A stretch of DNA of 64,000 nucleotides, from the NCBI GenBank assembly GCA_964016885.1, contig OZ024742.1, positions 145,142,001 to 145,206,000 on the forward strand. The letters run 5' to 3'. The DNA comes from Eledone cirrhosa. Taxonomy: Eukaryota. The position numbers were made by a program, and so were the translations under genes. Under the pieces are notes generated by a model. It worked only from the letters and a program-made list of their open reading frames with translations. It searched no databases and was not told the origin of the DNA. This document shows positions 1 to 50,237 of this stretch, in pieces; the first letter of the stretch is position 1, and the number at the start of each line of letters is the position of its first letter.

Positions 1-290
1 CTCCGTCATAGGATACATGATATTATTTTGTTATATTTTATCTGTAAAAGAATTATAATAAAAAAAATTTTATAATAAAAGGTTAAACTAAATTAAAAAA
101 TTATAATAAAAGGTTAAAATAGGTTAAAATTAATCTATAAATTAAATTACTGAATATATATTAGTAATATTTAAAGGTTTTTCAAAATTAATGATTACAT
201 AATATTTTCTCATCTGTAATAAAATATTAATTAAATTAAATTTATAGGTTAACTAACATTTAAATTAAATTAAATTCTAGAATAATGTTA

Positions 291-2732
291 TTAATTAGGT
301 TTATAATATTTAAATGTTTTTTTTAGTTTATGATTACACGATATAATTAATTCCTGTCTTTTATTTAATAAGATATCCCTAGACTTCATTATTTCAAATA
401 GTTCTTGGGAACATAATCTACATTCCTTTCTATTATTTTGATAAGGGGTGGCTCTTTTGAGCACACTCCAGGTCAAATCATATTTTATATTTTTATTTTT
501 ATAACTATTGATTTTTTCTGCTAGAGATGTTGTATTAGCCAGTGCGGCATTTTTAAAGCTATGTTTGTGGGTATTATACCTTGTCTTAAAATTGTTAGAG
601 GTAGCTCCTATATATGAGCAAATAGAATCTTTAGTTTTAACATTACATTTATAGACTATGTTGTTAACAAGACAATTCCCTTTTAATGGGCAGTTTGTTT
701 TGTTTCTACAGTTACATCCTTTCGTTAATTCTGTATTTGAGGAGATATTATTGTTAATTTGATGTACTGGTGGTATACTTATAGTTTTCTTACATTTATA
801 TGCATTATATGCACTTATATTTTGTTTTATGTTATTTGTTGTAGAATATGAGAATTTAACTGTAGACCTATTTAAGATTTGATGGTATTTGTGGTTTGGC
901 GGGAAGTTTTTCTCAAGGATATAAAAAAATTTTTTAGCAATATTATCCTTAACTTGTAAATTAAAAGGAGCATTATACCAAGTAACTCGTCTATTACGGT
1001 TTCTATGTTGTTTATTATTTTTATTATTTTTATATGTTGTATCATGATTTTTACTAGGAGGAATAATGTTAATGATCTCACCACAACTATTTTTAGTTAT
1101 ATTTGTAGATTTAGGTGTTTTATCTTTTTTATTAGGAGTTTTATTATTAATATTTATTATAGTCTTATGATGAGTAGTTTTTTGAGGGTTACTATACTTT
1201 ATATTAGAAGATTTAGTATTTTGGGGTATACTGTGGGTGGCATTTAGGTGTGTACCTTTCATTTGGTGTTTGTTGGTAATATTATGCTGTATGTTTTCAG
1301 TATTTTTAGTAGAGGTTATATACTCTAATCTATTTTTGTGGCCACTTCTATCTAGAGCTTCATTATAAAAGGTCGCATTTTTATCAAATACATCTTGGTT
1401 AGAAGAAAGGTTAGAAATTCTAAGTGATATATTATATGCAAGGTTTTTAAGGATAGATTTAGGGTGATTAGATTGTGAGTGTATGTAATGTAAGTTTAGG
1501 TTAGGTTTATGGTAAGGTTGGTATATACCCGTAGCTAAATCTAAAGTTATATCTAGGAAATTTACCACTTTACTTGTTTTTTCAAAAGTAATATTAAGAT
1601 TATAATAGTCCTTAAGGAAAGTTCTAATATGCTTTTTGTTTTTTTCGATTTCTGAAAGGCTAAGGTTGTTAGAAAGAAGAAGACAGTCATCACGATATAA
1701 ACCACCTTTGAGGTGGGGAAAAGAGGCATTTATGTTGAAAAGGAGAAAGAGGCCCACAAGATCAGTAATTTGGGCAGAATCGCTTGAACCCATAGTAATA
1801 TCAAAAAGATTACTATAAGTGTTTCTGGTCCAGTATTCATTCTGAAATTCAATAAGTGTTTGTCTAGCATGTGTAATAATGTTAATGTCATCCGAAGTTA
1901 AATTAGATCTATTTTTAGCAAATATTAATGCTTTGTTCAGGAGTATGGGTGATATAGAAGAATAATAGTTATCTATATCAAACTGTAGGAAAGAAGCAGA
2001 AGATTTACACCTAATATTTTTAAACCAATTAATTACCTGGGAGGTGTTTTCCCAGAGTGGTAAAATAACGTATTTTCTTATTTGTGGGATGACTCTATCT
2101 AAAATTTTTTTGCTAATTATTCCAATATCTGATTTGGAGGGACATATAAGTCTAATAGAAGGATTAGAGTTAAAGTTAGATTTGTGATCTTTCAGGTTGA
2201 AATGTGGACTTCTCAATGCCAAAGGTTCAGTTCTATCTTCAATATTTAGTTTTTTTACTATGTTGTGTGTTTTGTTGTTGATATTGGTGAGTGACGCATT
2301 ATTAGATTTTTTATAACTTTTTCTGAGTTCTTTATATATGAACTCATTATAATGTTCAATATCCATATGATACAAGTTACCAGTTTTGTCCGAGTGGACA
2401 TGGATTTTTTTAGACTTTTTTAGGTCCAATAGGGTAGAATCAAGGTCCTTTTGAAAGACGGATTTATACTTTTTAAATTTGAGATGTTTAATTAAATTAA
2501 AAAGGTCTTTCTCGAAGTCTTCAAGTAAAAAGTTGTGTGGTGGATTCTTGTAAGTGTTGAAATCATACATATATTTCCGATCTGCTTGTTTAGATTTTCT
2601 ATCAAAGTGGTAGGCTCTCCATCTAACCCTTCTGATAAAATTATTAGTTTTCTGAATCATAAGGAGTAAGAAGTCGTCCTTGGAAGGTATTGGTATGTTT
2701 TTTAAGGAGGTTCCTAAATATTGTTTTTCCAT
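291..2732 (-). CDS. Penelope-like element polyprotein (reverse transcriptase + C-terminal GIY-YIG endonuclease), Naiad-type
   Basis: Uninterrupted ORF. The track starts it at TTG 2753; the first ATG is at 2732. Motifs: N-terminal SLKNIPIPS..FIRRVRWRA; RT motifs LKDHKSNF..PSIRLICP, QFDIDNYYSSI, FDITMGSSDSAQITDLVGLF, catalytic GLYRDD, VNFLDITLDL, YIHSQSNHP; TWYNAPF; Cys linker CNCRNKTNCPLKGNC; GIY-YIG IVYKC..SYIGAT..FKTRYNTH; C-terminal CRLC..E..LLNKRQE..CNH. Clade call is from motif recall. Confidence 0.92.
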   Translation of the reverse strand: MEKQYLGTSLKNIPIPSKDDFLLLMIQKTNNFIRRVRWRAYHFDRKSKQADRKYMYDFNTYKNPPHNFLLEDFEKDLFNLIKHLKFKKYKSVFQKDLDSTLLDLKKSKKIHVHSDKTGNLYHMDIEHYNEFIYKELRKSYKKSNNASLTNINNKTHNIVKKLNIEDRTEPLALRSPHFNLKDHKSNFNSNPSIRLICPSKSDIGIISKKILDRVIPQIRKYVILPLWENTSQVINWFKNIRCKSSASFLQFDIDNYYSSISPILLNKALIFAKNRSNLTSDDINIITHARQTLIEFQNEYWTRNTYSNLFDITMGSSDSAQITDLVGLFLLFNINASFPHLKGGLYRDDCLLLSNNLSLSEIEKNKKHIRTFLKDYYNLNITFEKTSKVVNFLDITLDLATGIYQPYHKPNLNLHYIHSQSNHPKSILKNLAYNISLRISNLSSNQDVFDKNATFYNEALDRSGHKNRLEYITSTKNTENIQHNITNKHQMKGTHLNATHSIPQNTKSSNIKYSNPQKTTHHKTIININNKTPNKKDKTPKSTNITKNSCGEIINIIPPSKNHDTTYKNNKNNKQHRNRNRRVTWYNAPFNLQVKDNIAKKFFYILEKNFPPNHKYHQILNRSTVKFSYSTTNNIKQNISAYNAYKCKKTISIPPVHQINNNISSNTELTKGCNCRNKTNCPLKGNCLVNNIVYKCNVKTKDSICSYIGATSNNFKTRYNTHKHSFKNAALANTTSLAEKINSYKNKNIKYDLTWSVLKRATPYQNNRKECRLCSQELFEIMKSRDILLNKRQELIISCNHKLKKTFKYYKPN

Positions 2733-3075
2733 TGTGATATGGATGATGGACAATTGAAAGAGCTCAACTAAATGTATATGGGTTTACAAAATCATACATA
2801 TATATATGTATATACATAAATATAAAATTAATACACACATACAGTACAAAAATACGAATATTTCCGTGAAAATAGGAGCAAAATTATGTAGATAAATCTA
2901 CCAAGAGTTTACGGTAGTGTCCAATCCGTATGAAGAACTCAATGTATTCCGGATATCATGGAAAGAAGAGATGTAATGAAAATCCAATTTCGGTGAAAGA
3001 TAAACGGTATACAGAGTCAAGATAAAATATTAAACAAATAATGAACAAACAATTCCTTATATTAAACAAAAAAAG

Positions 3076-3230
3076 TTCACTATTTAACGATCGTTTCTAG
3101 GGTATATATGTGCTATAATTGGTATGCATATTTAACAGATCTATGTACAAAATTATACAAAATTATACAAATTATCAAGATTAGATATACATACCTAACA
3201 CATATATACGCCGTCTTCAGAAATAATGAA
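3076..3230 (-). ncRNA. Hammerhead ribozyme motif (type I, PLE-associated) with extended stem II
   Basis: Minus strand reads UUCAUUAUUU-CUGAAGA-[116 nt hairpin]-GAAA-CGAUCG-UU-AAAUAGUGAA. Stem I is 10 bp, stem III is palindromic, and the motif is on the same strand as the ORF and upstream of it. Confidence 0.75.
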
Positions 3231-3819
3231 GTATATTTATTGATAATAACAACAATTCAAAATATCAGTTCAAAATTGACCAATGAAAACACAAAGGGTT
3301 AAAAAGCAGTTTGGTGTGTGTATATACATGTAAAACCCCACACACATTTTACAATAATGTGTGTATAATATGTATGTGCATACTAAAAAGATGGATGCAA
3401 ATAAAAAATTTCAAGGTTAATATCTCTGTAAGCTTAATGCGCTGATAAGAAACGCAATGATACTTATGTAGTCAAGCATATAAATATATTTTTTTCATAC
3501 TCACACATATCAGTATAATCACACATACATGTGCGCATATATATAAATATACACATAACCACGAACACACAAACACACACACACCCCCCACTCACATTTA
3601 TATATGTGGATATAAAATCATAAGCAAATAGAAATTAAGTCACTCACATAAACACACTGGTACACACATTTCAAGATCAAGATACAGAAATTAGGTGGGA
3701 GGGGGGGGGAGGGGTCAGTATTAGGTTGTCAGACAGACAGCCTAATATAAATGTATCTATAAATTATGAAAAATAAAAAAATAAAAACAATAAAATATAT
3801 TACATATAATATAATGTAC

Positions 3820-4006
3820 ATACGCATACAGATATACATACACATACGTACATGTACGCGCACATAGAGATATCTACACATACATACATACACACATACC
3901 TATACTGTCATACACACACATACATTTACACGAACATACACATACACATATAAAAAAATAAAAAGATAAAAATACGGACACACACACACGCAACACATAC
4001 ACACAT

Positions 4007-4053
<47 letters not shown>

Positions 4054-4171
4054 TATACACACACACACATAGACTCATATATATATACACATACACATAC
4101 ATATACTTATACATAAACATATATATCCCACACTCATACCACCATGAAAACACATACAAACATCCAGATGC

Positions 4172-4214
<43 letters not shown>

Positions 4215-4311
4215 AACATACACACACGTACACATATATGCATATATACATACATATATACACACATACACATATATATATATATACACACACACATAAA
4301 ATACAGACATG

Positions 4312-4342
<31 letters not shown>

Positions 4343-4438
4343 TTCATTACCCTTATATATACACATAGTACATATACATACACAACCTCACTTATACACA
4401 TATACACATAAGTTATATTACAATAATAATAAAGAATA

Positions 4439-4469
<31 letters not shown>

Positions 4470-4608
4470 TATACACACATATACACATATACATACATAC
4501 ACATACATATACATACATACATACACATACATACATACACCTAAATATAAACATATATAAATACACACATACGAATAAAGACATATATTCACACATAGAC
4601 ACCTATAT

Positions 4609-4667
<59 letters not shown>

Positions 4668-4742
4668 TACACATACATACACATATACATATACATACAC
4701 ATATATACACACGCACACACATACAGACACACATACACACTC

Positions 4743-4780
<38 letters not shown>

Positions 4781-5170
4781 GAGTGTGCGCAAATACATAC
4801 ATATATATACACACACACATACAAACACACACAAACACATACATATGCATACATGCACACACACACACATATATCACATAGATACGAAGATAAACATATA
4901 AATAGAGAGACATACAAATATATACAGAACCCATATACACATACATGCAAACACGCATATACATATATACATATATACACACATATATATTCCTATATAC
5001 AAGCATACACATACGCACACATATATACATATACCTACACATATATATACCACACATTCACATACACGTACATATATAAATACATATATATACATACATA
5101 TACATACATATGTATGTACAATCATATATACACACTCAATCTTACATTCATATTTACATGCTCATATATG
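3820..5170. repeat. Compound (CA/TA/CATA)n microsatellite-like tract inside the PLE non-coding region (mirrored at ~8590-9940)
   Basis: Direct reading. The irregular pattern is reproduced in both arms. Confidence 0.9.
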
Positions 5171-6172
5171 TATTTTTATATCTAGAAATAAATACCAAAA
5201 AAACTATATAGACACCCATCTACCCAAATTCATACATATACACTTACAAAAACAGATGATAATAGTATGGGGGAAAGGGGGGGGTTTGGAGAAGGGGATC
5301 AAAGTAAATATATGTTTCAAGAAACCTATAATATTTTCCATATCTTAATTCAATGTATGTTCCTACATATTTTCAATGCTAGGAAATACGAAATCTATGC
5401 ATCACAAAATAAAAAAGTATACCATTAATCATATGTCAACTAAACCAAAGATAGTCAACATATTGATTTCCAAGGTGTAAATTAGTTAGGTTTATAATAT
5501 TTGAAGCAGAATTATGAAGTCAAACAGTAGTAGATTATTAATTACATTATAACTAAATTAAAGTTAATAATAGGGAAAAGAAACCCAAATAAAAATAAAA
5601 TAAAGTATTACATCGGTAGTAGCATATAAATTATATGTTAACTAAGTTAAAAATTATATATTTATTTCAATAGTATATGTTAATTAGTATATGTTAATTA
5701 GGTATACAATACATAAAGCAGATATTGTATTTCATCAATAGCATAATATAATTATATGCAAATAAAAATCAAAATTAATACGCATACACATACATATACA
5801 TACACATACACATACATATACATATACATACACATATATATATATATATATACATATATATACACACATACATACATATATAGTCACATAAATATACATA
5901 CAGATACACATACAATACACACATATACATATACATATAGATATACATATCTTTTTCAAAAAATTTGCACAGAATATATTAACTAGGTATATATCCAAAA
6001 ACACCTCCCATTCTATGATTACATGAAATTCTGCAATTCGTCTGTACAAGGATACTAATTTTAAGCAAATTAAAATTAAAATTAAAGTTTTAGGTTGATT
6101 AAAGCTAAAACCAAATAATAAATATATTTCCAAAATGTATATTAATTAGGTCAATAATACTAAAAATTCTTT

Positions 6173-6959
6173 CTCCGTCATAGGATACATGATATTATTT
6201 TGTTATATTTTATCTGTAAAAGAATTATAATAAAAAAAATTTTATAATAAAAGGTTAAACTAAATTAAAAAATTATAATAAAAGGTTAAAATAGGTTAAA
6301 ATTAATCTATAAATTAAATTACTGAATATATATTAGTAATATTTAAAGGTTTTTCAAAATTAATGATTACATAATATTTTCTCATCTGTAATAAAATATT
6401 AATTAAATTAAATTTATAGGTTAACTAACATTTAAATTAAATTAAATTCTAGAATAATGTTATTAATTAGGTTTATAATATTTAAATGTTTTTTTTAGTT
6501 TATGATTACACGATATAATTAATTCCTGTCTTTTATTTAATAAGATATCCCTAGACTTCATTATTTCAAATAGTTCTTGGGAACATAATCTACATTCCTT
6601 TCTATTATTTTGATAAGGGGTGGCTCTTTTGAGCACACTCCAGGTCAAATCATATTTTATATTTTTATTTTTATAACTATTGATTTTTTCTGCTAGAGAT
6701 GTTGTATTAGCCAGTGCGGCATTTTTAAAGCTATGTTTGTGGGTATTATACCTTGTCTTAAAATTGTTAGAGGTAGCTCCTATATATGAGCAAATAGAAT
6801 CTTTAGTTTTAACATTACATTTATAGACTATGTTGTTAACAAGACAATTCCCTTTTAATGGGCAGTTTGTTTTGTTTCTACAGTTACATCCTTTCGTTAA
6901 TTCTGTATTTGAGGAGATATTATTGTTAATTTGATGTACTGGTGGTATACTTATAGTTT
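6173..6959 (-). repeat. Direct repeat of 1-787 (GIY-YIG end of the PLE ORF plus start of 3' UTR); 5'-truncated upstream tandem unit
   Basis: Identical start ctccgtcataggatacatga. The last ~165 aa of ORF 6463-7077 match the end of ORF 291-2753. Confidence 0.95.
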
Positions 6960-8977
6960 CTATTTGCTCATATATAGGAGCTACCTCTAACAATTTTAAG
7001 ACAAGGTATAATACCCACAAACATAGCTTTAAAAATGCCGCACTGGCTAATACAACATCTCTAGCAGAAAAAATCAATAGTTATAAAAATAAAAATATAA
7101 AATATGATTTGACCTGGAGTGTGCTCAAAAGAGCCACCCCTTATCAAAATAATAGAAAGGAATGTAGATTATGTTCCCAAGAACTATTTGAAATAATGAA
7201 GTCTAGGGATATCTTATTAAATAAAAGACAGGAATTAATTATATCGTGTAATCATAAACTTAAAAAAAACATTTAAATATTATAAACCTAATTAATAACA
7301 TTATTCTAGAATTTAATTTAATTTAAATGTTAGTTAACCTATAAATTTAATTTAATTAATATTTTATTACAGATGAGAAAATATTATGTAATCATTAATT
7401 TTGAAAAACCTTTAAATATTACTAATATATATTCAGTAATTTAATTTATAGATTAATTTTAACCTATTTTAACCTTTTATTATAATTTTTTAATTTAGTT
7501 TAACCTTTTATTATAAAATTTTTTTTATTATAATTCTTTTACAGATAAAATATAACAAAATAATATCATGTATCCTATGACGGAGAAAGAATTTTTAGTA
7601 TTATTGACCTAATTAATATACATTTTGGAAATATATTTATTATTTGGTTTTAGCTTTAATCAACCTAAAACTTTAATTTTAATTTTAATTTGCTTAAAAT
7701 TAGTATCCTTGTACAGACGAATTGCAGAATTTCATGTAATCATAGAATGGGAGGTGTTTTTGGATATATACCTAGTTAATATATTCTGTGCAAATTTTTT
7801 GAAAAAGATATGTATATCTATATGTATATGTATATGTGTGTATTGTATGTGTATCTGTATGTATATTTATGTGACTATATATGTATGTATGTGTGTATAT
7901 ATATGTATATATATATATATATATGTGTATGTATATGTATATGTATGTGTATGTGTATGTATATGTATGTGTATGCGTATTAATTTTGATTTTTATTTGC
8001 ATATAATTATATTATGCTATTGATGAAATACAATATCTGCTTTATGTATTGTATACCTAATTAACATATACTAATTAACATATACTATTGAAATAAATAT
8101 ATAATTTTTAACTTAGTTAACATATAATTTATATGCTACTACCGATGTAATACTTTATTTTATTTTTATTTGGGTTTCTTTTCCCTATTATTAACTTTAA
8201 TTTAGTTATAATGTAATTAATAATCTACTACTGTTTGACTTCATAATTCTGCTTCAAATATTATAAACCTAACTAATTTACACCTTGGAAATCAATATGT
8301 TGACTATCTTTGGTTTAGTTGACATATGATTAATGGTATACTTTTTTATTTTGTGATGCATAGATTTCGTATTTCCTAGCATTGAAAATATGTAGGAACA
8401 TACATTGAATTAAGATATGGAAAATATTATAGGTTTCTTGAAACATATATTTACTTTGATCCCCTTCTCCAAACCCCCCCCTTTCCCCCATACTATTATC
8501 ATCTGTTTTTGTAAGTGTATATGTATGAATTTGGGTAGATGGGTGTCTATATAGTTTTTTTGGTATTTATTTCTAGATATAAAAATACATATATGAGCAT
8601 GTAAATATGAATGTAAGATTGAGTGTGTATATATGATTGTACATACATATGTATGTATATGTATGTATATATATGTATTTATATATGTATGTGTATGTGA
8701 ATGTGTGGTATATATATGTGTAGGTATATGTATATATGTGTGCGTATGTGTATGCTTGTATATAGGAATATATATGTGTGTATATATGTATATATGTATA
8801 TGCGTGTTTGCATGTATGTGTATATGGGTTCTGTATATATTTGTATGTCTCTCTATTTATATGTTTATCTTCGTATCTATGTGATATATGTGTGTGTGTG
8901 TGCATGTATGCATATGTATGTGTTTGTGTGTGTTTGTATGTGTGTGTGTATATATATGTATGTATTTGCGCACACTC

Positions 8978-9015
<38 letters not shown>

Positions 9016-9090
9016 GAGTGTGTATGTGTGTCTGTATGTGTGTGCGTGTGTATATATGTGTATGTATATGTATATGTGTATGTATGTGTA

Positions 9091-9149
<59 letters not shown>

Positions 9150-9288
9150 ATATAGGTGTCTATGTGTGAATATATGTCTTTATTCGTATGTGTGTATTTA
9201 TATATGTTTATATTTAGGTGTATGTATGTATGTGTATGTATGTATGTATATGTATGTGTATGTATGTATATGTGTATATGTGTGTATA

Positions 9289-9319
<31 letters not shown>

Positions 9320-9415
9320 TATTCTTTATTATTATTGTAATATAACTTATGTGTATATGTGTATAAGTGAGGTTGTGTATGTATATGTACTATGTGTATA
9401 TATAAGGGTAATGAA

Positions 9416-9446
<31 letters not shown>

Positions 9447-9543
9447 CATGTCTGTATTTTATGTGTGTGTGTATATATATATATATGTGTATGTGTGTAT
9501 ATATGTATGTATATATGCATATATGTGTACGTGTGTGTATGTT

Positions 9544-9586
<43 letters not shown>

Positions 9587-9704
9587 GCATCTGGATGTTT
9601 GTATGTGTTTTCATGGTGGTATGAGTGTGGGATATATATGTTTATGTATAAGTATATGTATGTGTATGTGTATATATATATGAGTCTATGTGTGTGTGTG
9701 TATA

Positions 9705-9751
<47 letters not shown>

Positions 9752-10737
9752 ATGTGTGTATGTGTTTGCGTGTGTGTGTGTCCGTATTTTTATCTTTTTA
9801 TTTTTTTATATGTGTATGTGTATGTTCGTGTAAATGTATGTGTGTGTATGACAGTATAGGTATGTGTGTATGTATGTATGTGTAGATATCTCTATGTGCG
9901 CGTACATGTACGTATGTGTATGTATATCTGTATGCGTATGTACATTATATTATATGTAATATATTTTATTGTTTTTATTTTTTTATTTTTCATAATTTAT
10001 AGATACATTTATATTAGGCTGTCTGTCTGACAACCTAATACTGACCCCTCCCCCCCCCTCCCACCTAATTTCTGTATCTTGATCTTGAAATGTGTGTACC
10101 AGTGTGTTTATGTGAGTGACTTAATTTCTATTTGCTTATGATTTTATATCCACATATATAAATGTGAGTGGGGGGTGTGTGTGTGTTTGTGTGTTCGTGG
10201 TTATGTGTATATTTATATATATGCGCACATGTATGTGTGATTATACTGATATGTGTGAGTATGAAAAAAATATATTTATATGCTTGACTACATAAGTATC
10301 ATTGCGTTTCTTATCAGCGCATTAAGCTTACAGAGATATTAACCTTGAAATTTTTTATTTGCATCCATCTTTTTAGTATGCACATACATATTATACACAC
10401 ATTATTGTAAAATGTGTGTGGGGTTTTACATGTATATACACACACCAAACTGCTTTTTAACCCTTTGTGTTTTCATTGGTCAATTTTGAACTGATATTTT
10501 GAATTGTTGTTATTATCAATAAATATACTTCATTATTTCTGAAGACGGCGTATATATGTGTTAGGTATGTATATTTAATCTTGATAATTTGTATAATTTT
10601 GTATAATTTTGTACATAGATCTGTTAAATATGCATACCAATTATAGCACATATATACCCTAGAAACGATCGTTAAATAGTGAACTTTTTTTGTTTAATAT
10701 AAGGAATTGTTTGTTCATTATTTGTTTAATATTTTAT
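6958..10737 (+). repeat. Inverted copy (~3.78 kb) of 3022-6799
   Basis: Mirror ORF pairs: 5735-6133/7625-8023, 4413-5057/8701-9345, 3108-3302/10457-10651. Coordinate sums stay at 13757-13759. Only a few differences seen (near 3184/10575, 3991/9767, 5068/8690, and an extra T at ~7260). Confidence 0.95.
10529..10683 (+). ncRNA. Second copy of the same hammerhead motif, in the inverted arm
   Basis: ttcattattt CTGAAGA (10539-10545) ... GAAA (10662-10665) cgatcg tt aaatagtgaa. Predicted cleavage after 10673; the arm ends 64 nt later. Confidence 0.75.
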
Positions 10738-10932
10738 ATGTATATATATATATGTATATATATGTATATATATATGTATATATATGTATATATATGTATA
10801 TATATATGTATATATATGTATATATATATGTATATATGTATATATATGTATATATATGTGTATATATATATGTATATATGTATATATATGTATATATATG
10901 TATATATATATATGTATATATATGTATATATA
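10738..10932. repeat. (TA)n/(TATG)n microsatellite
   Basis: Direct reading. Confidence 0.95.
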
Positions 10933-11790
10933 GTATTAGTTATACTATTTATGGTTATGTAAACACAAAACCTTAAGCAGTTGTAAGTATTTTACACACA
11001 CCCTAAATAGTGGTAGGCAGTAATGTATTACTACCTTATTACCAGTAAGTTAAGTAGCTCAATGTAAAAACATCAGATGATTTACAGAGCAGTTATATGA
11101 AATATAAGAATCAAAGAACTGTTCAAAACATTATTGTGCTTACAGCTGTTTCCTCCAAACCGAGGTTTGGATTCTTCGGAGCAATTTATTAATGCATGGA
11201 CAGTTATATGACCTCCTTTTCAGCCGAGAGACATACCAATACATATTCAAACATTGATACATATTCAAACATTGTGGGTCAACATTCATTACAGAATTTA
11301 GAGTGGCAGTACACACTTCGAGATTACATTTATATTAATAGGTACAATCAAAAAAATCAAAGATATAGGTTAAAGTACAACATGAAGGTAAGTGGTTATA
11401 TAGTGCAAATGTTATGTGTGTGGCACGCATGTGCGTCTTGTTTATATAGTGTGGCAGAGAGATATGTGTGGTAGAGGCACTTAGGTAGGTAAATAAGAGT
11501 GTTAGGTTGGTAGATCTGGTGGCAAAGTCTTTATATGATTGATATAGTCTGTGTGTGGAGAAATATTATAAGCATTAAAGATAGTGCAAGCATTAAAAGT
11601 GTTATAAGTATTGGAGATGCACAGCGCAGTGGTGTCAAGTAATTCATGTACTTCGGTATTTTCATGGTCAAGGGAGTGTATATTTCGATTATATGCCTTT
11701 CACATAATCCACGACAATCCAGTTAGAGATCGTAGTGTGGTGCTCTTTAGTTCGATACAGGTGGTTGTTACGTTTCGAGAGACGCCATTT
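10933..11790 (-). mobile_element. Non-coding insert in the microsatellite bearing an HHR motif; probable PLE 3' fragment or solo pseudo-LTR
   Basis: Complex sequence flanked on both sides by (TA)n. HHR-like motif at 11137-11183, ~200 nt from the minus-strand 3' end. No recognisable ORF. Confidence 0.55.
11137..11183 (-). ncRNA. Minimal hammerhead motif, variant core (CCGAAGA)
   Basis: Minus strand reads UGCU-CCGAAGA-A-UCCAAAC-CUCG-GUUUGGA-G-GAAA-CAGCUG-UA-AGCA. Stem III is palindromic. U4C change and a mismatched stem II closing pair. Confidence 0.65.
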
Positions 11791-12470
<680 letters not shown>

Positions 12471-12694
12471 TTTCGTTTCTGAATTTGTTTAGCAAGATTC
12501 TTTATCTGAAATCGTGTGTTGAAACCGATATTGTTATACTTTGGGAGGGTCATGTTGCCAATAAGAAACACACGCACCAGTTGCTTTCACTTCAATTTAA
12601 TTTATTAAATATTTATAAGTTTACAAATTTATAAATTTATAAATTTCTGGTTGGTTGGTTGGTTCCACAACCAGATAGTTGTTTATATATATAT

Positions 12695-12739
12695 AGTCAT
12701 AGTTCTTTCGTCACACACTCTGTGACCTCTTCAGTGACT
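12695..12739 (-). ncRNA. Minimal hammerhead ribozyme motif
   Basis: Minus strand reads AGUCA-CUGAAGA-G-GUCACA-GAGUG-UGUGAC-GAAA-GAAC-UA-UGACU. The core is intact. It lies ~290 nt downstream of the GIY-YIG stop on the same strand. Confidence 0.8.
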
Positions 12740-13029
12740 GGGGATTTCTTTCTTCGTTTCTGTGCCTTTCCTTTCTTCTATCCTACGCCATTTTGTTTGT
12801 GTGTGGGTTGCGTGCTCAGTTTGCGCATGCGCCACATCCGGGTGTCTGTGTGTGTGTTTGTGTTCATTTTTCTATTTTTCTATTTATATTTTTCTATTTG
12901 TTTGTTTATTTATTTATTTATTGTTGGTTGGTTGTTTGTTCTATGTGTGTGTGTGTTTTCATTTTGTCTTGTGTGTGTTTTCAATTGTAAGTTGTTTGTT
13001 CTATGTGTGTGTGTGTTTTCATTTTGTCC

Positions 13030-13580
13030 TTAATTGTAAGTTGTGATGTTGCTGTTCCACTCATATTTTCTATTTAATTTTGGTTTTAATTCTTTTATGC
13101 TTACTGCCTCTGTAATTTGCCTAAACATTGCGTCTTTCTTGTGTGTGGATTCTATTTTTATTTCTATGCTCTCTAATTTACCCCTGTGTTCTATCTTAGC
13201 ATGTTGGTAGAGCACAGATGATTCTTTACTATCTTGGAGGTCTCGCCAGTGTTCATTTATTCGTTCCCCTATACTACGAGCTGTCTCACCTATGTACACT
13301 ATATTTTTGTTTCTACATTGTCCTTCAGTATATCTTATGCTATATACTACATTTCTAGTTTTACAGTTGATATGGGGGCTTATTTTACAGGTTATACATT
13401 TCTTATCTATACATGAGGGTCTTTGGAACGGGTATGTCTTGCTAATAAGTGTTTTTACGGAGGTACCAGGTCTTTCTACTATCTTAATATTGAGATTATG
13501 TTTCTTTAGGGCCCTTCTAAATTTGTAGGCTAGTTCGCCTCTAGGGTTGTATTGATGAACATTACACTCTGGTATTTTAT
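13030..13580 (-). pseudogene. PLE linker + GIY-YIG endonuclease fragment (Neptune-like)
   Basis: Manual translation: KYQSVMFIN (frameshift) [121 protein letters not shown]. Confidence 0.85.
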
Positions 13581-13657
13581 TGCTATCATACCATGTTGCT
13601 GTTGTGATGTTGCTGTTCCACTTATGAGTGGAACAGCAACATCACAACTTACAATTA

Positions 13658-20433
<6,776 letters not shown>

Positions 20434-24136: not shown

Positions 24137-24560
24137 TTGTGTCAGGCAAAAGTACCACAGACGCTCTTTTCATTGTACGACAACTACAGGAGAAGTACCT
24201 AGCTAAAAGTAAACCCCTATACTTAGCTTTTGTCGACTTGGAGAAAGCCTTCGACAGAGTCCCCCGTTCCATTATCTGGTGGTCTCTTAGAAAACTAGGT
24301 GTTGACGAATGGCTTGTGAGAGCTATACAAGCCATGTATAAAGAAACAGTCAGTAAGGTTAGAATTAACAACGAATATAGTGAAGAGTTTAGCGTAAAAG
24401 TTGGTGTCCATCAGGGCTCTGTACTTAGCCCCCTACTATTTATTATTGCCCTTCAGGCTATAACAGAGGAGTTCAAGACCGGCTGCCCATGGAACTCCTA
24501 TACGCAGATGATCTAACGCTCATAGCTGAATCAATGACCGAACTAGAGAAGAAATTCCAA
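24137..24560 (+). mobile_element. RTE-clade LINE RT fragment, cut off by the assembly gap
   Basis: [44 protein letters not shown]. Same start point and near-identical sequence to 26285-26709. Confidence 0.9.
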
Positions 24561-24761
24561 ANNNNNNNNNNNNNNNNNNNNNNNNNNNNNNNNNNNNNNN
24601 NNNNNNNNNNNNNNNNNNNNNNNNNNNNNNNNNNNNNNNNNNNNNNNNNNNNNNNNNNNNNNNNNNNNNNNNNNNNNNNNNNNNNNNNNNNNNNNNNNNN
24701 NNNNNNNNNNNNNNNNNNNNNNNNNNNNNNNNNNNNNNNNNNNNNNNNNNNNNNNNNNNNN
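24561..24761. other. Assembly gap (N run)
   Basis: Run of n characters. Confidence 1.
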
Positions 24762-26284
<1,523 letters not shown>

Positions 26285-28104
26285 TTGTGTCAGGCAAAAG
26301 TACCACAGACGCTCTTTTCATTGTACGACAACTACAGGAGAAGTACCTAGCTAAAAGTAAACCCCTATACTTAGCTTTTGTCGACTTGGAGAAAGCCTTC
26401 GACAGAGTCCCCCGTTCCATTATCTGGTGGTCTCTTAGAAAACTAGGTGTTGACGAATGGCTTGTGAGAGCTATACAAGCCATGTATAAAGAAACAGTCA
26501 GTAAGGTTAGAATTAACAACGAATATAGTGAAGAGTTTAGCGTAAAAGTTGGTGTCCATCAGGGCTCTGTACTTAGCCCCCTACTATTTATTATTGCCCT
26601 TCAGGCTATAACAGAGGAGTTCAAGACCGGCTGCCCATGGGAACTCCTATACGCAGATGATCTAACGCTCATAGCTGAATCAATGACCGAACTAGAGAAG
26701 AAATTCCAAACTTGGAAGCACGGCCTAGAATCAAAAGGCCTTAAAATTAACCTGGCTAAGACTAAAGTTCTAGTTTGTAGGAAAGAAAATAAGGCGGCGG
26801 TCCCATCGGGGAAATGGCCATGCTCAGTGTGTAGGAAAGGCGTAGGTAGAAACTCCATTTTATGTCCCAAATGCAAAGTATGGGTGTATAAAAGATGTAG
26901 TGGATCACAGGTAAGCTAACTAAGAACATAGATTTTACATGTGGCCGGTGCTCTGGTGCAATAAGTAGCAGCAAGTGCCCACAAAATACTAGCTCCTTCA
27001 ACTGCGCAGAGGGTTCTATAGAAATAGTGGACAGCTTCCGTTATCTGGGTGACAAAATCAGCAGTGGGGGAGGGTGCTCTGAAAGTACAGTAGCTAGAGT
27101 CAGAACTGGATGGAAAAAGTTCAGAGAGCTTATACCACTATTAGCCGCTAGAGGGTTCTCCCTAAAAATGAAAGGCAGGTTATACGATGCCTGCATACGA
27201 ACAGCAATGCTGCATGGCAGTGAGACCTGGGCATTGTGTGCAGAGGATATACGCAGACTAGAGAGGAACGAAGCTTGCATGCTCCGCTGGATGTGCAATA
27301 GTAATATACGTAAACGGCAAAGCATAAACGAACTAAGAAAAAAATTAGAAATAAGAGGGATCAGATGTTGTTTACTCGAGAGAAGGCTACGTTGGTACGG
27401 TCACGTGATGCGCATGAAAGACGACAGCTGTATAACAAAGTGCAGGGCAATAAAGATAGACGGTAGCCACGGAGTAGGCAGACCCAGAAAAACATGGAAC
27501 GAGCTGATAAATTCCGTCCTCACACGCTTACACCTCTCCAAGACAATGTCACTGGACCGAGACCTTTGGCGGTACTCAGTAATAGAGAAGACCCGCCTTA
27601 CCTAAATACAAAGTAAAAACCTACTACAGTCAGTAGGCACCTCTATCAAAACACACCCCCGTCCCACCACCTCCACACCGCCCCTTTCAATGTAAAGTTA
27701 TGTTGGTCCCACAACATCCAGGCCGAAACAAATGAGATCGTGTAGGTGTCACGACAAAAAACACACAGTCCACGCTGTAAATGTGGCCGTGTAGGCAACA
27801 CGGTAAAAACCTCCCAGCCCCACACTGTAAATGTGGTTGGTGTTAGGAAGGGCATCCAGCTGTAGAAAACCCGCCAGACAGTCCACGCTGTAATGTGGCC
27901 GTGTAGGCAACACGGTAAAAACCTCCCAGCCCCACACTGTAAATGTGGTTGGTGTTAGGAAGGGCATCCAACTGTAGAAAACCCGCCAGACAGTCCTATG
28001 CGAGCAAGACAACCACTCTTGCCTCAAGTGGGAAAACCCCCGTCCAAACCCATGCAAGCGTGGAACACGGACGCTAAACCTGATGATGATGATGATGATG
28101 ATGA

Positions 28105-47861: not shown

Positions 47862-48066
47862 TCATCAGCATCATCATCTTTGTTTAACGTCCGTTTTCCA
47901 CGCTAGCATGGGTTAGACGGGAGTTGTCCCACTTGAGGAAAGGCTGGTCGGGTGACCGTGTCTTGCTCATATAGGACTATCTGGCAGGTTTTCTATGGCT
48001 GGATGCCCTTCCTAACACCAACCACATTTACAGTGTGGAACTGGGAACTTTTTACCGTATTACCTA
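47859..48066 (-). mobile_element. Short 3'-end fragment of a related RTE, opposite orientation
   Basis: (CAT)n tail followed by a diverged reverse complement of the RTE 3' UTR (ggatgcccttcctaacaccaaccacatttacagtgtgg). Flanked by (TA)n. Confidence 0.85.
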
Positions 48067-48092
<26 letters not shown>

Positions 48093-48100
<8 letters not shown>

Positions 48101-50237
48101 ACTTAACGATGATGGCATACTTGCCATCACCGACGCTGATAAGAAGGTAGCTTGGAAGTGTCACTATGAAAGGCTACTAAATGAGGAGAATAAATGGGAG
48201 AAAGACAGTCTCCCCCATATCGACCCAATAGAGGGACCAGCAGTGTTAGTCGAGGGGAGTATAATAAGTAAGGCAATCAAGGATATGAAGACGGGTAAGG
48301 CGGCTGGGCCTTCGGAAATAGTTGCTGAGATGCTGAAGGCATCTGGCACGGTGGGACACACCATGGTCACCCGCATAGTTAACCAAGTCGTACAGAATGG
48401 GGTTGTTCCGAAGGACTGGCATAGCAGCATCATCGTTAACTGTTATAAGGGTAAAGGAGACGCCCTAGATAGGAGTAACTATAGAGGCATTAAATTAATC
48501 AACCAGGTCATGGTCACGGAAAAAGTAATAGCGCAACTAATCAGAGAGAGAATTGACCTAGATGAAATGCAGTTCGGGTTTGTGTCAGGCAAAAGTACCA
48601 CAGACGCTCTTTTCATTGTACGACAACTACAGGAGAAGTACCTAGCTAAAGGTAAACCCCTCTACTTAGCTTTTGTCGACTGGGAGAAAGCCTTCGACAG
48701 AGTCCCCCGCTCCATTATCTGGTGGGCTCTTAGAAAACTAGGCATTGACGAATGGCTTGTGAGGGCTATACAAGCCATGTATAAAGAAACAGTCAGCAAG
48801 GTTAGAATTAACAACGAATATAGTGAAGAGTTTAGCGTAAAAGTTGGCGTCCATCAGGGCTCTGTTCTCAGCCCCCTACTATTTATTATTGCCCTTCAGG
48901 CTATAACAGAGGAGTTCAAGACCGGCTGCCCATGGGAACTCCTATACGCAGACGACCTGACACTCATAGCGGAATCAATGGCCGAGCTAGAGAAGAAATT
49001 CCAAACATGGAAGCACGGCCTAGAATCAAAAGGACTTAAAATTAACCTGGCTAAGACTAAAGTTCTAGTTTGTAGGAAAGAAAATAAGGCGGCGGTCCCT
49101 TCTGGGAAATGGTCGTGCTCGGTGTGTAGGAAAGGCGTAGGTAGAAACTCCATTTTATGTCCTAAATGCAAAGTATGGGTGCATAAAAGATGTAGTGGGA
49201 TCACAGGTAAGCTAACTAAGAACATAGATTTTACATGTGGCCGGTGCTCTGGTGCAATAAGTAGCAGCAAGTGCCCACAAAATACTAGCTCTTTCAATTG
49301 CGCAGAGGGTTCTATAGAAATAGTGGACAGCTTCCGTTACCTGGGCGATAAAATCAGCAGTGGGGGAGGGTGCTCTGAAAGTACAGTAGCTAGAGTCAGA
49401 ACTGGTTGGAAAAAGTTCAGAGAGCTTATACCACTATTAGCTGCTAAAGGGTTCTCCCTAAAAATGAAAGGCAGGTTGTACGATGCCTGCATACGAACAG
49501 CAATGTTGCATGGCAGTGAGACCTGGGCATTGTGTAACAGTAATATACGTGAACGGCAAAGCATAAATGAACTAAGGAAAAAATTAGAAATAAGAGGGAT
49601 CAGATGTTGTTTACTCGAGAGAAGGCTACGTTGGTATGGACACGTGATGCGCATGAAAGTCGATAGCTGTATAACAAAGTGCAGGGCAATAAAGATAGAC
49701 GGTAGCCACGGAATAGGCAGACCTAGAAAAACCTGGGACGAGCTGATAAACTCCGACCTCACACACTTACACCTCTCCAAGACAATGTCACTGGACCGAG
49801 ACCTTTGGCGGTACTCAGTAACAGAGAAGACCCGCCTTACCTAAATACATAGTAAAACCTACTACAGCCAGTAGGCATCTCTAACAAAATACACCCCGTC
49901 CCACCACCACCACCCCCACCCCATCCACACCACCCCGTTCTATGTAAAGTTATGTTGGTGCCGCGCCATCCAGGCCGAAACAAATGAGATCGTGTAGGTG
50001 TCACGACAAAAAAACACACAGTCCACGCTGTAATGTGGCCGTGTAGGCAACACGGTAAAAACCTCCCAGACCCACACTGTAAATGTGGTTGGTGTTAGGA
50101 AGGGCATCCAATTGTAGAAAACCTGCCAGATAGTCCTATGCGAGCAAGACAATCACTCTTGCCTCAAGTGGGACTACCCCCGTCCAAACCCATGCAAGCG
50201 TGGAACACGGACGTTAAACGTTGATGATGATGATGAT
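48093..50237 (+). mobile_element. 5'-truncated RTE-clade LINE; RT reading frame open to 49844; no endonuclease domain; (GAT)n tail
   Basis: [72 protein letters not shown]. Same family as 26285-28105. Confidence 0.93.

Follow-up and report, generated by a model that had tools for sequence, protein, structure and literature searches.

Penelope-like elements (PLEs) usually lie in genomes as a full-length copy that follows a truncated copy in tandem, and an inverted copy truncated at its 5′ end often adjoins them (PMC8557442). Direct plus inverted copies also occur in rotifer Penelopes (PMC3846280), and how PLEs make tandem and inverted insertions is stated to be an open question (PMC8557442). 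We analysed a 64,000-nt stretch of the Eledone cirrhosa genome (OZ024742.1, positions 145,142,001 to 145,206,000; hereafter the window), which holds an intact PLE in a (TA)n microsatellite. The insertion consists of a full copy, a partial tandem and an inverted 5′-truncated copy. By its motifs, the element appears to belong to the Hydra clade and not to the Naiads. The architecture itself is not new. The multi-kilobase inverted arm noticed in the original prediction is real, but the layout is the published PLE norm, and the Hydra family Penelope-13_HM has a documented inverted 5′-truncated copy of 966 nt (PMC8557442). What is unusual is the size, namely a 3.4-kb 3′ untranslated region (UTR) and an enlarged predicted ribozyme.

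The Hydra clade is described as having a C-terminal endonuclease without an N-terminal CxC, the motifs RWK, CxCx5C and DKT (from DKG), CxxC and CxH flanking the catalytic E and N, no CCHH motif, an unconserved GxKF/Y, a hammerhead ribozyme and a (TA)n target (PMC8557442). Its elements are generally shorter than 3 kb, which is a descriptive criterion (PMC8557442). The features of the present locus are as follows.

1..290, minus: the full-length copy's initial 290 nt of 3′ UTR, continuing past the window edge (identical to 6173-6462)
291..2732, minus: single intact open reading frame (ORF) of 813 aa, reverse transcriptase (RT) then GIY-YIG (open reading frame, motifs, alignment, predicted structure)
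2733..3085, minus: 5′ leader; 354 nt separate the ATG from the predicted site of ribozyme cleavage (sequence reading)
2885..3021, minus: 137-nt stretch between the (TA)n-abutting ends at 3022 (inverted copy) and 2885 (sequencing runs X14, X4 and X5) (family reads)
3022..6799, minus: left palindrome arm, part of the 5′-truncated direct copy (self-alignment)
3076..3230, minus: predicted type I hammerhead, left copy, cleavage after GUU (3086) (motif search, mirror of 10529-10683)
3231..6172, minus: rest of the 3377-nt 3′ UTR, with blocks rich in TA/CA microsatellite at ~3790-5150 and ~5780-5950 (composition)
6173..6959, minus: exact direct repeat of 1-787, holding the 5′-truncated ORF end (aa 649-813) (self-alignment)
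6800..6957, no strand: arm spacer, ORF sequence found in the direct copies only (self-alignment)
6958..6959, no strand: strand-switch junction, TT microhomology with imperfect 6/8 pairing (self-alignment, pairing statistics)
6958..10737, plus: inverted 5′-truncated copy, equal to the right arm, 3′ end outward (self-alignment)
10529..10683, plus: predicted type I hammerhead, right copy, cleavage after 10673 (motif search, folding)
10738..10934, no strand: (TA)n/TATG microsatellite target at the right end (sequence reading)

The arms of 3778 nt (left) and 3780 nt (right) showed four differences in the alignment (99.9% identity), of which two were substitutions (3184/10575 and 5068/8690) and two were 1-nt indels (3991/9767 and 6496/7261). 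Such identity over a 3.78-kb repeat excludes chance. The spacer between the arms measured 158 nt. The direct repeat was identical at 787/787 positions, which sets the period at 6172 nt. The TT at the junction is common to the direct and the inverted copies. The right arm stopped at 10737, 64 nt past the predicted cleavage site and directly on a TA/TATG microsatellite, beyond which the DNA was unrelated to the left side. This is the end of the element, and positions 3021 to 1 are not mirrored. No further copy of the Hydra-type element was found elsewhere in the window. An intact PLE with a partial tandem of a 6172-nt unit, the arm and spacer coordinates with few differences, the 2-nt strand switch and the arm end on (TA)n had all been claimed from the sequence beforehand, and each was recovered here.

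Window positions 1-3790 were compared with the reads of 4 of 16 sequencing runs from related animals. Run X14 is restriction-site-associated DNA sequencing, in which depth follows restriction sites and was not used as copy number. Nearly all reads of the four runs differed from the window at many sites, indicating animals that lack this subfamily. The strand switch (787/627) was not among the 10 joints listed in these runs, which is uninformative because they carry other subfamilies. This missing read support would also be expected if the inverted arm were a fold-back artefact of sequencing or assembly, and a 200-N gap with a duplicated 411-nt stretch shows that the assembly is imperfect nearby. 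A fold-back read would nevertheless mirror past 3022, whereas the mirror ends on the microsatellite and is followed by unrelated DNA. The four differences between the arms also speak against an artefact: at 3184/10575 the right arm has the family allele (227/227 X14 reads) and the left copy does not. As the layout is that known for PLEs, we regard an artefact as quite unlikely.

The RT part of the ORF is telomerase-like, with RWR at aa 37, DKT at aa 115 and YRDD at aa 346-349, followed by the thumb. The C-terminal part has a CxCx5C linker at aa 673, YIG at aa 707, CxxC at aa 771 and CxH at aa 799. R718, H722, E777 and N790 of the GIY-YIG domain were conserved in a 79-sequence alignment, the domain being called from motifs and not from a Pfam or fold match. 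The structure model had a pLDDT of 85.5, and its top eight Foldseek matches were TERTs (best E 7e-9). A disordered insert rich in N, K and T (aa ~482-572) was predicted after the thumb, and some homologs carry inserts at the matching position of the alignment. Pfam returned no family for the 813-aa ORF at E<=0.1, and the PDB sequence search gave a weak match to a retron RT alone (E 0.0016).

The search yielded 116 homologs at 31-48% identity. The RWK position reads RWR in the ORF, and K/R varies among the homologs; DK[T/S] was present in 108/116. RT preceded the endonuclease in all 51 homologs in which regular expressions found both catalytic motifs. The ORF had no match to GxKF/Y, no CCHH in its endonuclease, and neither an upstream KR/CxC block nor an N-terminal CxC. 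The Cx2-5CxxC linker and CCHH of Neptune/Nematis were replaced by the CxCx5C linker. In a tree of 21 RT regions, the ORF and 15 homologs with Hydra motifs were separated with 100/100 support from five Neptune/Nematis-like RTs, which are relatives of a second PLE in the window (see below); the tree took in no named Naiad, Neptune, Poseidon, Nematis or Hydra references and no Naiad rows.

The domain order, the Hydra motifs (RT then C-terminal GIY-YIG, RW[K/R], DKT, CxCx5C, CxxC/CxH, no CCHH), the presence of a type I hammerhead close to the 3′ end and the (TA)n target match the published description, and Hydra membership is proposed for this reason. The ORF N-terminus was colinear by eye with that of Hydra-1_Obim, while the hammerhead and N-terminus differ from it enough to indicate another family. 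The size departs from the Hydra description, with a unit of 6172 nt.

The element had originally been labelled a Naiad. Naiads are defined by an N-terminal endonuclease and lack a canonical hammerhead (Craig et al. 2021, PMC8557442). They share with this locus the (TA)n preference, partial tandems and inverted 5′ copies, and this is what favours the label. Unlike the present ORF, Naiads also have CxC, DKA, IFD and, in the endonuclease, CCHH and Cx2-5CxxC, and Naiad_Obim begins with the endonuclease. Here, YIG (aa 707) follows YRDD (aa 346), DKT replaces DKA, CCHH and the upstream KR/CxC block are absent and a hammerhead is predicted. The RT-then-endonuclease order refutes Naiad identity, for which we see practically no room.

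The hammerhead claimed earlier was found once per arm and is predicted to fold well as type I. It has a 10-bp stem I, a CUGAAGA core, a 116-nt helix II and a 3-bp palindromic stem III. The unconstrained fold of 10529-10684 had the type I shape with an open core (z = -6.95; 0/200 shuffles were as stable). Rfam gave no hammerhead model for 1-13700, and among the 150 of 171 matches listed there were microsatellite-driven microRNA matches below the gathering score only; the call therefore rests on motif search and folding. Hammerheads with a short palindromic stem III are described as likely dimer-dependent (PMC4209133), and one combining such a stem with a long helix II can be assayed directly. 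About 56 X14 reads skipped 85-87 nt of helix II (window 3112-3198), possibly a compact ribozyme variant in the family.

For comparison, 78 related metagenome loci were scanned by script, and a downstream hammerhead was called in 46. Two with unconvincing helix II calls were dropped: L054, whose hammerhead call lay 2797 nt downstream and had a helix II of 64 nt, and L067, which was misparsed. Several of the remaining 44 loci belong to the same family; the 32/78 without a match mostly have short flanks, a few having flanks of 1.7-2.4 kb that could hide long UTRs. The distance from stop codon to ribozyme core was 3242 nt here vs 48-462 nt (median 110) in the 44 loci, and helix II was 116 nt vs 10-25 nt. 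The helix is also far longer than in the Hydra ribozymes listed in PMC8557442. Complete Hydra families there have units of 2084-2729 nt, and the 27 listed families reach at most 3045 nt (PMC8557442), so the 6172-nt unit doubles the known Hydra size range. We found no paper on long-UTR Hydra elements in the literature accessible to us, and the supplements of a 2026 Octopus vulgaris repeat paper may contain the family. One related Hydra element (L018:1-5083) is a full tandem at 99.9% identity; its period is 2427 nt, and hammerheads lie at positions 205 and 2632.

The 3377-nt UTR resembled host DNA in its share of alternating repeats (28% vs 26%) and GC content (24% vs 27%), and it contained (TA)8+ tracts. 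Both of its ends (1-290 and 3303-3790) were present in many diverged copies in runs from organisms A and B, and the 10 joints listed included none that connects the two ends directly. From the comparison of 1-3790, the family thus seems to have a UTR of ~1 kb or more as a trait. The palindrome is long because the UTR is long, since any inverted copy needs more than 3.4 kb to extend into the ORF. The Adineta vaga element Pen1 likewise has a spacer of 0.9-1.5 kb, apparently captured host DNA, before its 3′ pseudo-long terminal repeat (pLTR); Pen2a-4 have N-rich inserts, and direct plus inverted pLTRs occur in A. vaga Penelopes (PMC3846280). Those elements belong to another PLE clade, and the spacer here is 2-3 times longer, with both ends common to many diverged copies.

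Family copies in other runs differed by 1-10%; the family has very many copies, with (TA)n as its target. Its clearest (TA)n-abutting end lay at 2885, with 655 reads in X14, three contigs in X4 and a contig start in X5. The 3022 end was absent among the 24 of 685 loose ends listed, from runs that hold other subfamilies. The right end, 64 nt past cleavage, fell inside the 32-140 nt range of 11 hand-picked (TA)n-abutting ends from nine related loci. The 2885..3021 stretch is a candidate for a long PLE tail, which in the anole element is the stretch between two RT start sites (PMC11167929). A perfect 6-bp hairpin at 2885-2902, just upstream (in element sense) of the 2885 end, is a candidate RT-start signal. 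In X1 and X4, contig depth summed over 2795-3300, which is not copy number, exceeded that of the ORF several-fold to ten-fold; short 5′-truncated or non-autonomous copies would be expected to give such an excess. The earlier claim that both outward ends are element 3′ ends holds for the visible right end on (TA)n; the left end may be of the 2885 type and not of the 3022 type.

We consider it moderately probable that the locus arose when a Hydra PLE entered (TA)n in one event, in which both cut strands were primed and two complementary DNAs (cDNAs) were joined head-to-head at TT. The order of the domains and their motifs, the arrangement of the repeats, the (TA)n-abutting end, the near-identity of the copies and the predicted hammerhead fold are the direct observations, from which we infer the steps. 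The GIY-YIG domain would nick both (TA)n strands, and from each 3′-OH reverse transcription would begin at a set position inside the RNA, shortly downstream of the ribozyme. The template RNA would cross the ribozyme uncut or re-ligated, by multimeric read-through or as a circle. The left cDNA would run ~10.1 kb, or 1.6 units, and its left end is predicted to lie either 3150 or 3287 nt ahead of position 1; the right cDNA would stop after 3.78 kb. Their 3′ ends would anneal at TT (6/8 pairing) and be filled in. Twin priming of L1 also joins two opposing cDNAs by short microhomology; in L1, sequence upstream of the 3′ end makes up the inverted part, whereas here the 3′ end is repeated.

Because cleavage is predicted 64 nt before the 3′ end, the template must probably span the ribozyme uncut or re-ligated; a cleaved linear monomer would yield only 64 nt of cDNA. 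The proposed 6172-nt unit RNA thus cannot simply be the template. The anole Poseidon protein in vitro cleaves both target strands and extends them from the same internal RNA sites, and it mainly uses uncut RNA, independent of ribozyme cleavage (PMC11167929). This behaviour, together with the template having to span the ribozyme, is why both-strand priming is favoured. The Anolis PAc element is the model for an internal start downstream of the hammerhead and a two-site tail; its tail of 30-40 nt lies inside the ORF (PMC11167929), whereas here 137 nt separate the two candidate ends, and the leader that holds them measures 354 nt.

The original prediction had left the choice between twin priming and a fold-back switch open, and both remain inferred readings. 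In the latter, the 3′ end of the first cDNA would self-prime at 6799, copy back to 3022 and there be cut or joined to the target. Self-priming has been proposed for Penelope inverted junctions (PMC3846280). The 6/8 pairing between positions 158 nt apart agrees with it: among random position pairs of the same region, the chance was 0.107 for 2 nt and 0.012 for 2 nt plus >=6/8. The absence of 3022 among the listed family ends also favours it. Copying back would, however, have needed to halt at precisely an end of the element type next to (TA)n, without running into the leader and ORF. The two direct copies agree at 6496, where the inverted arm differs, and the arm carries the family allele at 3184, which the left copy lacks; each is a single site at which later mutation or error is possible. 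Taken together, we think fold-back copying somewhat unlikely.

The abundance of the family, its (TA)n target and the (TA)8+ tracts of the UTR itself would also allow a second copy to have been placed beside the first, by an independent insertion or a later rearrangement. This is very improbable in our judgement. The junction lies in ORF sequence and not in (TA)n, without a target remnant, and the arms are 99.9% identical as against the 1-10% divergence of family copies in other runs.

Several points weigh against one-event, both-strand priming of a Hydra element and its unusual size. Among family ends on (TA)n, 2885 has the best support, and 3022 could represent a rarely used start site or a place where DNA was cut. 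By its sequence, the junction is just as compatible with fold-back; none of the reads in the four runs, which carry other subfamilies, spans it, and the left end lies outside the window, unseen. On the side of clade and size, the RT tree is one without named Naiad, Neptune, Poseidon or Nematis references, and relatives with long flanks and no hammerhead match could hide long UTRs.

Other strand-switch joints were seen in the element, at 3021/3147 (X14, 72 reads with one start) and at 1890/3335 (X1, one contig), which may be other inverted insertions of the family. A short inverted match of 31-188 nt was present at 7/78 metagenome loci. No kilobase-long inverted copy occurred in the 78 loci, where short-read contigs break at such repeats.

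The three long UTR copies in a near-perfect insertion offer a natural test, because shared private mutations tell one template from two. We speculate, with considerable doubt, that the locus represents a lineage of giant Hydra elements in which a (UA)n-rich 3.4-kb 3′ UTR and a 116-nt ribozyme hairpin would be conserved working parts and priming would occur at two sites 137 nt apart. If this were true, the locus would be frozen proof of two-template, both-strand priming on uncut or circular RNA, and the record would be readable from allele sharing among the three UTR copies.

The arms differed by two substitutions in 3778 nt (0.053%), and this near-identity bears out the recent insertion claimed before. 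With the octopus calibration of a distance of 0.09 for 25 Myr (PMC13282606), the insertion would be roughly <=0.1 Myr old if the calibration holds for the host, the count being tiny (n=2). The insertion is likely very young. We dropped A-to-I editing as an origin of the two substitutions, since the number is so small (n=2), one of them is a transition at a CpG, and the direction misfits editing of sense RNA.

As the arms are head-to-head, the element's own sense transcripts would point outward, so a 3.78-kb RNA hairpin would form only from an outside transcript crossing both arms. The suggested double-stranded hairpin and small-RNA source therefore needs such a transcript, and it has a precedent in the small interfering RNAs mapped to inverted Penelope regions in transgenic Drosophila (PMC3681739). 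Any function of the palindrome for its host would be hypothetical.

A second, unrelated PLE, 5′-truncated, lies at 12471-13660 on the minus strand. It retains the thumb together with a GIY-YIG at the C terminus (Pfam E 5e-4), with a Neptune/Nematis-like Cx4CxxC linker. This PLE carries a separate, compact hammerhead, whose core is at 12734 and whose helix II measures 18 nt, and both ends of the element lie on (TA)n. A 36-nt inverted copy of 13030-13065 is present at 13623-13658 and forms a 48-nt junction palindrome. This inverted 5′ end is of the same kind as that of the main element, in miniature.

A 411-nt fragment of a long interspersed nuclear element (LINE) is duplicated at 99.8% identity (24151-24561 and 26299-26710) around the 200-N gap at 24562-24761, and is likely an uncollapsed assembly overlap. 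Two 5′-truncated LINE copies, which we take to be RTE-like, were found on the plus strand at 26300-27620 and 47937-49857. They carry RVT_1 and a PHD-like Cys cluster, are ~95% identical and lie beside (TA)n.

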